Assembly (NCBI GenBank): GCA_934456365.1
Contig: CAKSHC010000002.1
Coordinates: 211,981-275,980 of the forward strand
Direction of reading: 5' to 3'
Source of the DNA: an uncultured Eubacteriales bacterium
Lineage (GTDB): Bacteria > Bacillota > Clostridia > Oscillospirales > UMGS1783
DNA: 64,000 bases
In this document: positions 2,515 through 60,800 of the stretch, in pieces
Layout: each line of letters starts with the position of its first letter
Position numbering within the stretch: position 1 is the first letter of the stretch
Translations under genes and position numbers: made by a program
Notes under the pieces: model-generated
Databases searched by the model: none
What the model saw: the letters and a program-made list of their open reading frames with translations, nothing else
Told to the model about the DNA's origin: nothing

Positions 2515-2850
2515 GAACGAGGAATGAGAAATGAGAAATTAAGGTAGGCGCGGGGCGCGCCATCCGATAGAATGCCCTTGTCCTTTAACGCGCCGCAGGC
2601 GCGGCACCGATGAGCAAAAAGAAACGCCCCACACGCAAAAAGAACGAAGTTCTCTGCGTGGGGGCGGAGCGTTTGCGAGTCGAAAGGAGGGGAGCGAGCC
2701 GACCGCCGCCGGTGGCGGAGGAAGGAAGGCGAGCGAGTGGCCGCGGTCGAATTTTTCAAGCGAGCGCTGCGAGCGCCGAAAAAGGCGGGCACCGCAACAG
2801 GAGCAAGGAAGCGGGCGACGACATTTTTTTGTTTTTCAAACAAAAAAATC
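2515..2850 (-). repeat. tRNA-downstream repeat family A, copy 1 (inverted relative to copy at 60487-60775)
   Basis: The 123-nt core (2679-2801) differs from the reverse complement of 60508-60630 only at one base and one short 6-8 nt patch. Shared terminal module: GGCGCGC hairpin plus CTCATTY heptads (2515-2580). Begins right after the tRNA-Thr terminator. Confidence 0.75.
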
Positions 2851-2878
2851 GTCGGAGCAAAGCGAACTTTGCTCCGAC
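2842..2878 (-). terminator. Rho-independent terminator of tRNA-Thr(CGT)
   Basis: 12-bp stem GTCGGAGCAAAG/CTTTGCTCCGAC with a 4-nt loop, followed on the minus strand by a T7 run. Confidence 0.8.
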
Positions 2879-2879
2879 G

Positions 2880-2954
2880 TGGAGCTGGTGAAAGGAATCG
2901 AACCTTCAACCTGCTCATTACGAATGAGCTGCTCTACCATTGAGCCACACCAGC
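2880..2954 (-). tRNA. tRNA-Thr (anticodon CGT), 3' CCA encoded
   Basis: Hand-folded cloverleaf. Acceptor GCTGGTG/CACCAGC, anticodon stem GCTCA/TGAGC, loop TTCGTAA, T-loop GGTTCGATTCC. Confidence 0.92.
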
Positions 2955-37314: not shown

Positions 37315-37413
37315 TCAGTCCGCGAAGGCAACCCCGGCACAATCGGCGCAGCAAAACATGCGCATGTCCATCATGCACATCATCGCCATATCCATCGCCG
37401 TAAAACGAACCAT
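37315..37413 (-). CDS. Met/Cys-rich leader peptide (32 aa) of metQNI
   Basis: AGGAGG, 9 nt, ATG, then MVRFTAMDMAMMCMMDMRMFCCADCAGVAFAD and a stop codon. It is the C-terminal end of track ORF 37315..37818. Confidence 0.6.
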   Translation of the reverse strand: MVRFTAMDMAMMCMMDMRMFCCADCAGVAFAD

Positions 37414-37441
37414 GCCGGTTTTCCTCCTCGATTTTTGCCCT

Positions 37442-37470
37442 ATTATATACGAACCCCTCCCGCTTGTCAA
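37442..37470 (-). promoter_or_regulatory. Consensus sigma-A promoter of the met leader/metQNI
   Basis: Minus strand TTGACA (37470-37465), 17 nt, TATAAT (37447-37442). Confidence 0.7.
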
Positions 37471-37531
37471 CCCCCTAATTTGTTTTTTTTTGTCAAATCC
37501 GCGCCCCTTTTGGGGAAAAGGGGCGCTTCCG

Positions 37532-37636
37532 TTACCGCTCGCTCTCGTGCCATTCGCAGCCGTAAAAAATGTAATCGTCCAGATCACCGACCGGCTCGCG
37601 CGCCGTTTCCGTTCCGGCAAAAAGCTCCTGTTCCAT
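37532..37636 (-). CDS. Possible small acidic protein (34 aa)
   Basis: GAGGAGGA RBS, then ATG 37636: MEQELFAGTETAREPVGDLDDYIFYGCEWHESER. Followed by the hairpin GCGCCCCTTTT/AAAAGGGGCGC. Below the track's size cut-off. Confidence 0.25.
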   Translation of the reverse strand: MEQELFAGTETAREPVGDLDDYIFYGCEWHESER

Positions 37637-37720
37637 GGCGTCCTCCTCGTTTTTCTCAGATAATCCAGTATATGATCCGACGCCAAAAAAATACCGGGAA
37701 AAACTTTCATTCCAAACATC

Positions 37721-37752
37721 AAAAGCGGCAAGGCATCGCCTTGCCGCTTTTT
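37721..37752. terminator. Hairpin terminator after the four-helix-bundle gene
   Basis: AGCGGCAAGGC-atc-GCCTTGCCGCT flanked by A4 and T5. Confidence 0.7.
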
Positions 37753-37818: not shown

Positions 37819-38175
37819 TCATTTTTCTGTTCCTTTCGCTGTGTTGATGGAAGCGATCAGCATCCTGCGAATGGTGCCGCATGAATTGTGCAGGGGCTTT
37901 GCTTTCTCACTGTTGATCAGATTGGATTTTTCAAATAGCGCAATCCAGTATTCGGTTTCAAAGCATTCCTTCAAAGCGATCTGAAGCTTTGCAATGAAAT
38001 CCGCTTTTCCATGGGCATAATTGGCTTCATGGATATTTGCGCCAATGCTCGTGGCCGCTCGTTCAAATTGATTGACAAGAGAATAATGTCCCTTAATATT
38101 TTCACAAAGTCGGATTGCTTCTACGGAAAAATCCATGGAAAAATCAACGAGCTTATTTTCCTTCAATCCATTCAC
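37819..38175 (-). CDS. Four-helix-bundle protein (23S rRNA intervening-sequence protein family)
   Basis: 118 aa with family-typical ERAATSIGANIHEANYAHGKADFIAKLQIALKECFETEYW. Visibly AT-richer than all neighbouring genes. Confidence 0.85.
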   Translation of the reverse strand: MNGLKENKLVDFSMDFSVEAIRLCENIKGHYSLVNQFERAATSIGANIHEANYAHGKADFIAKLQIALKECFETEYWIALFEKSNLINSEKAKPLHNSCGTIRRMLIASINTAKGTEK

Positions 38176-38190
38176 CTCTGCAAAAAGTTG

Positions 38191-38377
38191 TTCATGAAAT
38201 ATCGCTGCGCGATATGAAATAATTTGCTGCGTAAATTATGAAATTTTCCGCTTCGCGGAAAGTGAAATAAAATTCGCCTTTTCATATTTGGCAAAGCCAA
38301 ATATTTCATACGCTTTAGCGTATTTCATAGCGAAGCTATTTCACTCGCCGGTAGGCGAATTTCATTGAAAAATGGAC
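38191..38377. repeat. Repeat family B, unit 1 (187-nt hairpin array)
   Basis: Differs from unit 2 at only 3 positions. Seven short GC-cored hairpins separated by TGAAAT (left half) or ATTTCA (right half). Confidence 0.85.
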
Positions 38378-38436
38378 GATAAAAAGGTTTTGTCCGATTC
38401 GGGATTTTTGCGCAGACAAAAAGCGTATTGTTTTTC

Positions 38437-38623
38437 TTCATGAAATATCGCTGTGCGATATGAAATAATTTACTGCGTAAATTATGAAATTTTCCGCTTC
38501 GCGGAAAGTGAAATAAAATTCGCCTTTTCATATTTGGCAAAGCCAAATATTTCACACGCTTTAGCGTATTTCATAGCGAAGCTATTTCACTCGCCGGTAG
38601 GCGAATTTCATTGAAAAATGGAC
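38437..38623. repeat. Repeat family B, unit 2 (187-nt hairpin array)
   Basis: Direct repeat of 38191-38377 at a 246-nt period. Abuts the tRNA-Tyr terminator. Confidence 0.85.
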
Positions 38624-38646
38624 TTGCTTTTAGCAAGTCCATTTTT
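38614..38646. terminator. Bidirectional terminator downstream of tRNA-Tyr
   Basis: A5-TGGACTTGCT-ttt-AGCAAGTCCA-T5. Confidence 0.8.
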
Positions 38647-38647
38647 C

Positions 38648-38732
<85 letters not shown>

Positions 38733-38735
38733 ATC

Positions 38736-38811
38736 TGGAGCTGGTGAACGGAATCGAACCATCAACCTGCTGATTACAAATCAGCTGCTCTGCCAATTGA
38801 GCTACACCAGC
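38736..38811 (-). tRNA. tRNA-Thr (anticodon TGT), CCA encoded
   Basis: Acceptor GCTGGTG/CACCAGC, anticodon stem GCTGA/TCAGC, loop TTTGTAA. Confidence 0.92.
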
Positions 38812-38845: not shown

Positions 38846-38874
38846 ATTATAGCAAACGCGCGCCGGGTTGTCAA
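38846..38874 (-). promoter_or_regulatory. Consensus sigma-A promoter of the tRNA-Thr/tRNA-Tyr operon
   Basis: Minus strand TTGACA (38874-38869), 17 nt, TATAAT (38851-38846). Confidence 0.7.
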
Positions 38875-59013: not shown

Positions 59014-59075
59014 AAAGAGCACCCCTTTCTTTTCTCCAGTATAGCGTAGGGCGCCGGAAAAGTCAAACGGAAAAG

Positions 59076-59107
59076 AAAAAAGGCAGGGCATAAAGCCCCG
59101 CCTTTTT
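59076..59107 (-). terminator. Terminator after the csp gene
   Basis: GGCAGGGC-ataaa-GCCCCGCC (one mismatch) flanked by A6 and T5. Confidence 0.7.
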
Positions 59108-59117
59108 GCCGGTTCTC

Positions 59118-59327
59118 TTACTCAGGAATGACGTTGACCGCGCGCAGCTTGCTCGCGTTCTTGGGATCCTGCTCGGTTTCGAAGGAAACCTTCTGGCCCT
59201 CGTTGAGGGTCTTGAAGCCGTCGACCTGGATCGCGGAGAAATGCACAAAAACATCCTCGCCGCCTTCATCGTTGGCGATGAAGCCATAGCCCTTTTCTGC
59301 ATTGAACCATTTGACAGTACCGGTCAT
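59118..59327 (-). CDS. cspA: Cold-shock protein (CspA family)
   Basis: [17 protein letters not shown]...DVFVHFSAI (RNP1 and RNP2 motifs). Confidence 0.95.
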
Positions 59328-59370
59328 GTTACCGTACCTCCAATAAAATGTTATTCCGATCGAAGGCTAT

Positions 59371-59428
59371 AAAAAACTCACATTTTGTGTAAATCATCAA
59401 CGAACGAATGACTTACATAAAATGTGAG
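59371..59428 (-). promoter_or_regulatory. Terminator-like hairpin inside the csp 5' leader
   Basis: 16-bp arms CTCACATTTTATGTAA / TTACACAAAATGTGAG (one mismatch) with a 20-nt loop, followed by U6. About 45 nt upstream of the csp ATG. Confidence 0.5.
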
Positions 59429-59457
59429 TCGTACAGCGCTGTTCAGAACACGCGTTT

Positions 59458-60369: not shown

Positions 60370-60446
60370 GCGCTATTAGCTCAGCTGGATAGAGTGACTG
60401 GCTACGGACCAGTAGGTCAGGGGTTCGAATCCCTTATAGCGCGCCA
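60370..60446 (+). tRNA. tRNA-Arg (anticodon ACG), CCA encoded
   Basis: Acceptor GCGCTAT/ATAGCGC, anticodon stem ACTGG/CCAGT, loop CTACGGA, T-loop GGTTCGAATCC. Confidence 0.92.
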
Positions 60447-60486
60447 CGTCGTCGCGGACTTCACTTGTTCGCGACGACGTTTTTTG
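60447..60486 (+). terminator. Terminator of tRNA-Arg
   Basis: 11-bp stem ACGTCGTCGCG/CGCGACGACGT followed by TTTTTG. Confidence 0.85.
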
Positions 60487-60775
60487 TTTCTCAAAAAACA
60501 CGCCATCCCTGTTGCGGTGCCCGTCTTTTTCGGCGCTCGCAGCGCTCGCTTGAAAAATTCGACCGCGGCCACTCGCTCGCCTCCCTTTTTCCGCCACCGG
60601 CGGCGGTCGGCTCGCTCCCCTCCTTTCGACGCGTAAAATGCTTAGTCTATTCTATCGAATGGCGCGCCTCGCGCGCCTACCTCAATTCCTCATTTCTCAT
60701 TCCTCATTGCCCTTCCTGCGCGCCTACCTCAATTCCTCATTTCTCATTTCTCATTCCTCATTGCCCTTTTCTCGC
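60487..60775 (+). repeat. tRNA-downstream repeat family A, copy 2, with tandemly duplicated terminal module
   Basis: Core 60508-60630 matches the reverse complement of 2679-2801. The terminal module GCGCGCCTACCTCAATTCCTCATTTCTCATT... is present twice (60671-60717 and 60718-60771), with 3 versus 4 CTCATTY heptads. Confidence 0.75.
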
Positions 60776-60800
60776 ACCAAGGCCCCCTTGTTAATGGGGG

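Follow-up and report, generated by a model that had tools for sequence, protein, structure and literature searches.

What kind of element forms two near-identical arrays of small hairpins directly behind a tRNA operon in an uncultured Eubacteriales bacterium, and what do such arrays do? The arrays occupy positions 38188 to 38623 of the window, the whole 64,000-nt stretch analyzed here (contig CAKSHC010000002.1 of GenBank assembly GCA_934456365.1, positions 211,981 to 275,980 of the forward strand; GTDB lineage Clostridia, Oscillospirales, UMGS1783). A first-pass annotation made from the letters of this DNA had described two tandem repeat units that fitted no known repeat class. The repeats are in fact tandem copies of the Gut-1 motif (Rfam RF01706), with the defining features that were tested found in them. 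The window feature is a further instance of a known orphan motif, and its interest is the context found here.

The Rfam scan placed RF01706 at 38544-38613 (minus strand, 61.1 bits) and at 38298-38367 (minus strand, 60.3 bits), against a gathering score of 50 bits for the family. At 20 related loci the same domain was matched in the same orientation, always at or above the gathering score. The trait that defines the family, three hairpins spaced by (G)UGAAAU words and showing covariation, is present here, and hairpins 2 and 3 were recovered by RNAalifold. Gut-1 was defined from 43 human-gut metagenome sequences, without known function, in a description that says no more than that it occurs exclusively in environmental sequence from the gut (Weinberg et al., 2010, Genome Biol 11:R31, PMC2864571). 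The alignment in that work already holds copies 240 nt apart and a variant of the word (GUGAUAU, answered by AUAUCAC in the half that comes next) (PMC2864571). Literature searches for Gut-1 and for TIGR02436, a protein family that enters below, returned nothing later than the 2010 paper. As published, Gut-1 covers a single domain of 77 positions (D1 in what follows) and is filed as a small RNA (sRNA) gene without context. The window repeats share with it the three short hairpins with GUGAAAU words between them, a human or animal gut origin and tandem copies about 240 nt apart. A long-range helix (P1), a mirror-image second domain (D2), a terminator hairpin (HP0), an exact junction with tRNA CCA ends, a link to genes of family PF05635 and the behavior of a dispersed cassette are not in the published description.

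A repeat search of the window gave two copies of a 190-nt repeat, at 38188-38377 and 38434-38623, with a period of 246 nt and 98% identity. Compared base by base, they differ at four places (38190/38436, 38208/38454, 38226/38472 and 38309/38555), three of which fall within the 187-nt limits 38191-38377 and 38437-38623 drawn by the first-pass annotation; its count of three differences holds, with a fourth just outside those limits. In the first copy, TGAAAT lies on the plus strand at 38195, 38215, 38239 and 38263 (spacing 20, 24 and 24 nt) and on the minus strand, as ATTTCA on the plus strand, at 38303, 38322, 38338 and 38359. Seven hairpins accompany these words, at 38199-38215, 38221-38237, 38245-38261, 38284-38304 (central), 38310-38321, 38327-38339 and 38344-38358. 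The second copy has the same word pattern, each copy thus holding four TGAAAT words, seven mini-hairpins and four ATTTCA words, and the earlier description of the unit as a palindrome of motifs is borne out. Sixteen of the 43 matches to the word in the window are concentrated in these 433 nt, where about 0.2 would be expected by chance, and the fold of a unit scores z = -8.4 to -10.2 against shuffled sequence on either strand, as RNA or as DNA. The arrays sit in an AT-rich island (GC 0.37-0.43 vs about 0.6 in the flanks). A mechanical list of open reading frames (ORFs) runs ORFs of 30-76 aa across the repeats; these are by-products of the repeat and no genes, and the earlier verdict of no coding potential stands for genes, if not for ORFs as such.

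On the minus strand, which is also that of the adjacent tRNA genes, the tRNA-proximal unit 2 (38434..38623) begins with D1, the Gut-1 match at 38544-38613, and continues with a central hairpin (38530-38550) and the mirror array D2 (38438-38519). The distal unit 1 (38188..38377) has its D1 at 38298-38367, its central hairpin at 38284-38304 and its D2 at 38192-38273. The D2 halves matched RF01706 on the plus strand at 42.4 and 41.9 bits (the latter in unit 2), below the gathering score. The spacer between the units (38378..38433) is without a convincing promoter or terminator and has just a degenerate GGAC...GTCC hairpin.

Related units were gathered by one pattern scan of a species-representative genome collection and one more specific scan of metagenome contigs, which together gave 87 distinct full units, nearly all from metagenome-assembled genomes of Clostridia from human and animal guts (loci are labeled L###). 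On viral contigs one of 120 pattern hits was a true unit (L164), and a viral origin was rejected on that count; a plasmid collection gave no match to the element and a phage collection one partial match. TGAAAT words precede ATTTCA words in the related units and the order is never reversed. Read on the tRNA strand, HP0 is followed by D1, the central hairpin and D2. D1 starts with CAAYGAAAU and holds four to five words, with (R)UGAAAU between its hairpins, while D2 is a mirror-image array with AUUUCA(Y) words and GNA or GNRA loops. The terminal motifs are CAAYGAAAT and ATTTCRTTG, and the unit ends, TTTTCAAYGAAAT and ATTTCRTTGAAAA, are inverted relative to each other. All seven hairpins of a unit differ in sequence from each other, and the words of D1 and D2 are always reverse complements, across the word families GTGAAAT, GUGAUAU and GTGATGT. 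Truncated and mutated units are common. The first-pass annotation had allowed that the unit might be unique to its locus and not conserved in relatives, in which case it would be a meaningless local duplication of junk DNA. Unit 1 does decay in some strains; however, there are hundreds of related units, with conserved architecture and compensatory changes, the match is to a curated Rfam family, and the 87 distinct units, together with the covariation of P1 described next, already refute a junk duplication, to which we give practically no chance.

The 5′ arm of the first Gut-1 hairpin (H1) is also perfectly complementary to a segment about 83 nt downstream, just beyond the central hairpin. The resulting long-range helix, P1, closes D1 with 11-14 bp and competes with H1. 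In unit 2 its arms are 38599-38612 and 38512-38525, AAUGAAAUUCGCCU and AGGCGAAUUUUAUU on the minus strand with one G.U pair, in competition with H1 at 38590-38604; in unit 1 the arms are 38353-38366 and 38266-38279 (minus strand). Covariation was scored on a MAFFT alignment of 75 distinct D1 domains. For P1, 93.9% of cells form standard pairs and seven pairs are changed on both sides, values that none of 500 shuffles reaches, and the signal collapses once the partner columns are slid. For H1, the local hairpin on the same 5′ arm, 97.7% are standard pairs and five pairs are changed on both sides (likewise 0 of 500 shuffles). P1 is also selected independently by RNAalifold. Since H1 and P1 both covary, the one arm has two mutually exclusive partners.

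Other pairing schemes were tried and rejected. A rod in which each D1 word pairs with a D2 word in stacked four-way junctions is at odds with mutated words (TGATAT in L311, ATATCA in L245 and L250, CGAAAT in L288) that are not compensated in their nested partners; word-word pairs are present in minimum-free-energy folds, with covariation confined to the outermost, which belongs to P1. If the loops of D1 (UNC) and D2 (GNA) kissed, the middle bases of partner hairpins should match, and they do not; a tRNA-like cloverleaf reading of the P1 domain fits in topology, but the loops are just 3-4 nt long. Sibling elements with the same layout of HP0, P1, D1 and D2 and with other words (GTGATG(T)/CATCAC, AATGAT/ATCATT) were seen at L257 1600-1900, L292 1543-1691, L267 3306-3459, L343 868-998 and L038 986-1122. 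They often share a tRNA flank with a TGAAAT-type unit, and none adjoins a gene of the four-helix-bundle family discussed below.

The units have a fixed place in the genome. In the window, tRNA-Thr(tgt) (38736-38811, minus strand) and tRNA-Tyr(gta) (38648-38732, minus strand) form an operon behind a perfect sigma-70 promoter at 38846..38874 (minus strand; TTGACA-17-TATAAT with TG), which is the only strong promoter able to transcribe the arrays, and solely by read-through. The cassette starts directly after the CCA of tRNA-Tyr with HP0 (38613..38647), a perfect 16-bp hairpin with A-run and T-run flanks, GAAAAATGGACTTGC-tttt-AGCAAGTCCATTTTTC; the arrays do lie directly 3′ of the terminator of these two tRNA genes, as had been noticed. 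From its sequence, HP0 in the window acts as a bidirectional terminator. A hairpin of this type is found in 72 of 81 related units (median 18 bp, -23.5 kcal/mol). A same-strand tRNA gene ends 24-44 nt upstream in 43 of the 87 units, with at least 14 specificities represented, and at one locus a tmRNA takes the tRNA position. The junction is exact: tRNA...CCA is followed by (T)GAAAAA, HP0 and TTTTTCAAYGAAAT, and the order CCA, A-run, hairpin, T-run holds in 58 of 81 units. Several units without an intact tRNA keep a tRNA 3′ fragment or a bare ...CCA ahead of HP0, and an identical HP0 sequence recurs after different tRNAs. At L094 (2990-3300) and at L019, after the unit, a sequence of about 25 nt, AATCCGTTRTYRWCRYTCRTACCA, recurs directly ahead of successive HP0 hairpins; it ends in CCA and belongs to no recognizable tRNA.

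Taken as a whole, HP0 and one or more units, usually with an outward promoter and an Avd-like gene, make up a cassette of 0.6-0.9 kb. In gut Clostridia its orientation is fixed and its place is exactly the 3′ CCA of a tRNA gene, whatever the specificity of that tRNA. Blocks of HP0, unit and gene are 82-95% identical between loci that have unrelated flanks and follow different tRNAs: L024 and L290 have 718 nt in common at 95% with unrelated flanks, and the same is seen for L257/L253/L270, L111/L241 and L039/L336. The left edge of the copied block is the CCA, and the right edge lies at or just past the stop codon of the gene, or at its terminator. At L311, tRNA-Met and tRNA-Arg genes 1.2 kb apart are each followed by an identical HP0 and two units. 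At L038, a decayed 26-nt repeat of the tRNA-Trp 3′ end (81% identity) lies beyond the cassette, and past it comes another cassette, built on a different word (CATCATTTG / CAAATGATG). The window's own locus in other strains has unit 1 mutated (L362) or truncated with a different left flank (L361), and unit 2 is invariant. Because near-identical copies follow different tRNAs between unrelated flanks, with tandem and decaying copies among them, we consider the cassette dispersed and probably mobile, spreading as a selfish module. On a 1034-nt contig (L316), three tandem copies of a sequence of about 200 nt are each followed by a Gut-1 cassette, the first of a different type from the other two; the 200-nt sequence ends like a tRNA (T-arm, acceptor strand, CCA), and ARAGORN calls neither a tRNA nor a tmRNA.

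Several observations weigh against mobility. No consistent target-site duplication flanks the block at the approximately 50 loci examined, and repeats of the tRNA 3′ end occur in just two to four of these, including L038, L316 and L094. The block lacks a matching inverted repeat at its right end, and no gene for a recombinase, transposase or reverse transcriptase accompanies the cassette. Mobility is read from distribution alone, with no empty site among loci that were collected by unit-gathering scans. A few loci have a direct repeat shared by the HP0 loop and the right end of the block (ATCTTGATA in L024 and L290, TTGTCTGC in L111), which was considered and dropped as not general. Among the three candidates that the first-pass annotation had listed, a MITE-like element (miniature inverted-repeat transposable element) that targets tRNA terminators comes closest: the same cassette does stand exactly after the CCA of many tRNAs between unrelated flanks, and the part that does not carry over is the target-site duplication and the transposase, neither of which was found.

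The AT-rich gene noticed earlier beside the arrays is real and belongs to the four-helix-bundle family PF05635 (23S_rRNA_IVP; TIGR02436). It spans 37819..38175 on the minus strand, with a probable start at a TTG at 38166 (115 aa) after the ribosome-binding site AGAGGTGA, and a hairpin terminator downstream of it (37721..37751, AAAAGCGGCAAGGC-atc-GCCTTGCCGCTTTT) marks the end of the AT-rich island. Its product matches PF05635 (2e-25) and PDB 2RLD (3.5e-20) and is hence related to Avd, a protein of diversity-generating retroelements (DGRs) (PMC10053308). Avd is basic; the window protein is near neutral (15 K+R, 14 D+E). A homologue lies 20-76 nt downstream of the unit, on the same strand, in 27 of the 87 units. 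When four homologues were picked from the protein side, without the DNA pattern, all four had the same order of promoter, tRNA, HP0, unit, extended -10, ribosome-binding site and gene. At least 8000 clusters at 90% identity of PF05635 matched a single query, and the contigs that carry homologues of the window gene are mostly very short, which is what repeated DNA would lead one to expect. An RNase motif of the HEPN type (Rx4-6H) was absent from the window protein on inspection of its sequence, and membership in a defense system gained no PADLOC match. At L048 (880-1500) a 124-aa PF05635-like gene, 34% identical to that of the window, lies between two arrays of 14-15 nt tandem repeats in inverted orientation, an arrangement that recalls 23S rRNA intervening sequences, where PF05635 ORFs are likewise surrounded by inverted repeats. 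The FLSHclust survey of CRISPR (clustered regularly interspaced short palindromic repeats) lists '23S rRNA IVP' among proteins newly tied to CRISPR features (PMC10910872), and repeat finders could mistake Gut-1-like arrays of words and hairpins beside PF05635 genes for CRISPR arrays.

Whether the arrays act as RNA or as DNA depends first on how they could be transcribed. Strong outward promoters follow 13 of the 87 units (14 of 87 by the extended -10), with the -35 or extended -10 beginning 6-25 nt past the last word, and inward promoters were found at 0 of 87 loci. This promoter and terminator layout, as read from sequence, argues against a dedicated Gut-1 transcript. Nor do the arrays look like sites on duplex DNA. 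In that scheme, a reading of the earlier protein-binding array that is now disfavored, the words would be operator, centromere or arm-type sites for a regulator or recombination protein, controlling for example the outward promoter that abuts the last word. It would fit the invariance of the words amid variable intervening sequence, the strict reverse complementarity of D1 and D2 words across word families and the short distance to the promoter. However, the spacing of the words is broad (16-27 nt) and tracks hairpin length, with no helical phasing, which also disposes of DNA curvature, and palindromic spacers with compensatory changes, oriented loops and a helix covarying over an 83-nt range are left unexplained. 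We attach very little probability to it.

The stems and loops bear on which strand is folded. The variable parts of the stems are about 99% Watson-Crick, and the sole systematic wobble is at pair 2, where it stems from GUGAAAU. On the tRNA strand, pair 2 is G.T 165 times and A.C four times in D1, as against G.T six times and A.C 103 times in D2. The best fold of each half is thus obtained on the strand where it reads TGAAAT, which runs 5′ to 3′ inward from the end of that half. The change from a G-T to an A-T pair in hairpin 2, from which the first-pass annotation had argued for an RNA read from the plus strand, is as described; the argument does not generalize, given that the wobble favors the TGAAAT strand, and D1 and D2 carry that word on opposite strands. 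The loops go just as strictly with the orientation of the words, with C-UUC-G (71) and C-UGC-G (39) in D1 and C-GAA-G, C-GCA-G, GUAA and GCAA in D2. C(GNA)G is reportedly the classic extra-stable DNA mini-hairpin of Hirao et al.

From these comparisons we favor, tentatively and at somewhat less than an even chance, a cis-acting site that works at the level of DNA, single-stranded or extruded, in the manner of the repetitive extragenic palindromes (REPs) and bacterial interspersed mosaic elements (BIMEs) or of integron attC sites, as opposed to a free-standing sRNA. The hairpin arrays would be the folded nucleic-acid site of the cassette, in which GC-clamped mini-hairpins would display the invariant words to a word-specific trans-acting factor, the arrays working as single-stranded or extruded DNA during replication or recombination. 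A DNA-level role is favored because a strong terminator on one side and an outward promoter on the other box the unit in, and nothing reads into it; because the mirror halves each fold best on their own inward strand, so that no single transcript satisfies both; because the variable stems avoid G.U almost completely; because the C(GNA)G loops are, as noted above, extra-stable as DNA; and because units occur without a gene and the whole behaves like selfish DNA.

The evidence on RNA versus DNA is nevertheless split, and a number of points weigh against a DNA-level site. The type of RF01706 in Rfam is 'Gene; sRNA', and Weinberg et al. also rate the motif as RNA (PMC2864571). H1 and P1 are alternatives that covary equally well, a pattern that is the hallmark of RNA switches, and pair 5-114 of P1 varies between GC, GU and UA on the tRNA strand. 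Short stems would disfavor G.U in RNA as well. The loop argument (which points to the GNA strand) and the wobble argument (which points to the TGAAAT strand) indicate opposite strands within each half. Finally, the window gene, unlike its homologues, has lost its own -10 box, and because of this loss it is reachable only from the tRNA promoter, through both units.

The structured noncoding RNA that the first-pass annotation had proposed is a live rival, in two forms. In the first, the principal competitor of a DNA-level site, which we regard as possible but doubtful, read-through of HP0 from the very strong tRNA promoter would give a transcript of tRNA, HP0, D1 and D2, with or without the four-helix-bundle mRNA, in which D1 would toggle between H1 and P1; the single-stranded (G)UGAAAU linkers would be a multivalent protein platform, with the co-encoded, pentameric Avd-like protein as a candidate ligand, or the unit would be a leader or processing element for the gene. 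The covariation of Gut-1 with its mutually exclusive helices, the U.G at pair 2 and the G.U in P1 of D1 on the tRNA strand, the GNRA loops of D2 on that same strand, the four to five words per D1, the fixed co-orientation of unit, tRNA and gene and the missing promoter of the window gene all agree with such an RNA. There is also a precedent, in that the Avd pentamer grips a stem-loop of the DGR RNA with all five protomers and flipped-out bases (bioRxiv 10.1101/2023.10.23.563531). Yet a strong terminator stands directly upstream of the unit, and at most loci the gene is served by a promoter that lies past the unit, which leaves the unit out of the mRNA. On the tRNA strand, moreover, D2 would carry C.A mismatches at pair 2 (103 vs 6), the mirror symmetry is left without explanation, the sibling word families have no four-helix-bundle gene nearby and the window protein is near neutral, unlike the basic Avd.

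In the second form, an independent sRNA would be made from the window's plus strand, antisense to tRNA and gene, consisting of D2 and then the P1 domain and ending at HP0 as a Rho-independent terminator. Three observations would suit it. In nearly all loci HP0 is built as a perfect bidirectional terminator with its A-run toward the unit; pair 2 of the D2 hairpins reads U.G on the plus strand; and about two thirds of units have an uninterrupted outer part of P1 there. Against this, none of the 87 loci has an inward promoter. The sole candidate, a conserved antisense promoter within the 5′ coding region of the gene, was rejected as the product of conserved LVNQ codons, its -10 not being conserved. 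D1 would have C.A at pair 2 in more than half of its hairpins, and P1 pair 5-114 would be C.A in 28 of 75 units. We therefore consider a plus-strand sRNA improbable.

Returning to the favored DNA-level site, its most far-reaching version would make Gut-1 units the cis site of a new class of miniature mobile cassettes, distinct from sRNAs, that can enter any tRNA or tmRNA gene at its mature 3′ CCA, bringing a replacement terminator (HP0), an outward promoter and often an Avd-like gene. In this full form we think the proposal rather unlikely. The route of insertion could even be RNA-mediated, by tRNA-primed cDNA synthesis with the Avd-like protein as cofactor and a reverse transcriptase supplied in trans, which is conceivable because the junction corresponds to the 3′-OH of a mature tRNA and the sequence after the CCA to the complement of the U-tail of a terminated transcript.

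Whichever reading is preferred, Gut-1, a one-line orphan in Rfam since 2010, and PF05635, a very large and enigmatic family, travel together and so form one testable system. The unit is twice the size of the published motif, with switch-like alternative helices, in a module anchored at the CCA ends of tRNAs of any specificity. If the cassette is mobile, selfish DNA would be exploiting the stable-RNA genes of abundant gut Clostridia in a manner not seen before; if the arrays do their work as DNA, Rfam would have to re-label a family curated as 'sRNA'.

The immediate neighbors of the arrays in the window are the PF05635 gene, metQ/N/I, the tRNAs and an LD-carboxypeptidase gene. The leader of the metQ-metN-metI operon (37340-37720, minus strand) gave no Rfam riboswitch match even at E<=10, and an S-adenosylmethionine (SAM) riboswitch lies near the Gut-1 locus L276. 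A cspA thermoregulator (RF01766) was matched at 59075-59456 (minus strand; 80.7 bits vs a gathering score of 78). Other tRNA flanks in the window carry repeats as well. Downstream of tRNA-Thr(cgt) and tRNA-Arg(acg), at 2780-2885 (minus strand) and 60447-60560 (plus strand), there is a common layout of a CCA-CGTCG...CGACG-TTTTTTGTTT terminator and, about 40 nt past it, the motif CTGTTGCGGTGCCCGYCTTT, which may be another tRNA-flank repeat family, unrelated to Gut-1. At 60650-60780, downstream of tRNA-Arg (60370-60446), 7-nt repeats CCTCATT / TCTCATT (TRF period 7, 11 copies) form two similar blocks after the tRNA terminator, with no PF05635 gene there; they resemble the CTCATTTCTAATTT / GAAATGAGCAATGT repeats that flank the distant PF05635 gene in L048.

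How does the cassette compare with known systems? It is not CRISPR, as the first-pass annotation had concluded: the sole constant element is a word of 6-8 nt in place of identical repeats of 24-48 nt, the 'spacers' are palindromic and the orientation flips in the middle of the unit. Type III toxin-antitoxin systems (ToxI) have identical tandem repeats of about 36 nt ahead of an endoribonuclease toxin gene, whereas the hairpin modules here are not identical, and the neighboring gene is a PF05635 member with no PADLOC match. Elements that use tyrosine integrases and tRNA genes leave a repeat of the tRNA 3′ end, which is seen in L038, L316 and L094 and not in about 45 other loci, and there is no integrase within the cassette. 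MITEs (Correia/NEMIS, BOX, RUP, ERIC) are likewise small, noncoding and modular, have inverted terminal motifs (compare TTTTCAAYGAAAT ... ATTTCRTTGAAAA), lie between genes and next to terminators and can carry outward promoters. Gut-1 differs in that no target-site duplication, parent insertion sequence or transposase was found at the loci examined, and in that its structure is kept between genomes by compensatory change and not by sequence identity. Although the ends of the unit are inverted, the block that is copied comprises HP0, unit and gene, and its right end has no matching repeat.

With the DGR accessory protein Avd and the ORFs of 23S rRNA intervening sequences, the cassette shares a PF05635 gene beside or inside a highly structured nucleic acid on a stable-RNA or retroelement transcript. 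The window has an Avd-like gene alone, with no reverse transcriptase and no template or variable repeat, and so is not a DGR; its protein is near neutral and not strongly basic like Avd, and the gene follows a tRNA gene, in contrast to the intervening-sequence ORFs, which lie inside an rRNA helix. Integron gene cassettes and their attC sites share a site set by structure and not by sequence, inverted outer motifs, tandem arrays and an ORF with tight cassette boundaries, the conserved Gut-1 block ending at the stop codon of the gene. Gut-1 units differ from attC in having no R''/R' core (RYYYAAC / GTTRRRY) and no integron integrase (IntI) in the window neighborhood, in lying upstream and not downstream of the ORF, and in having a tRNA 3′ end as target in place of attI; moreover, Clostridia are not known for integrons. 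REP, BIME and REPIN sequences are extragenic palindromes with a short conserved head beside each hairpin. They lie dispersed, in inverted clusters that mark the 3′ ends of transcription units, with some copies in decay, and for REPs the active form is thought to be a single-stranded DNA hairpin, all of which recalls Gut-1. A genome with REPs, however, has many near-identical copies of one or two types of palindrome, whereas no two of the seven hairpins in a Gut-1 unit have the same sequence, and copying involves the entire 190-nt unit. Gut-1 is also tied to one kind of position, the tRNA CCA end, nothing in REPs corresponds to P1, and no RAYT gene is known to be linked to Gut-1 (the immediate window neighbors were checked). 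Although it thus falls outside both of these last classes, the Gut-1 unit would, by analogy, work most like a REP/BIME or an attC site.

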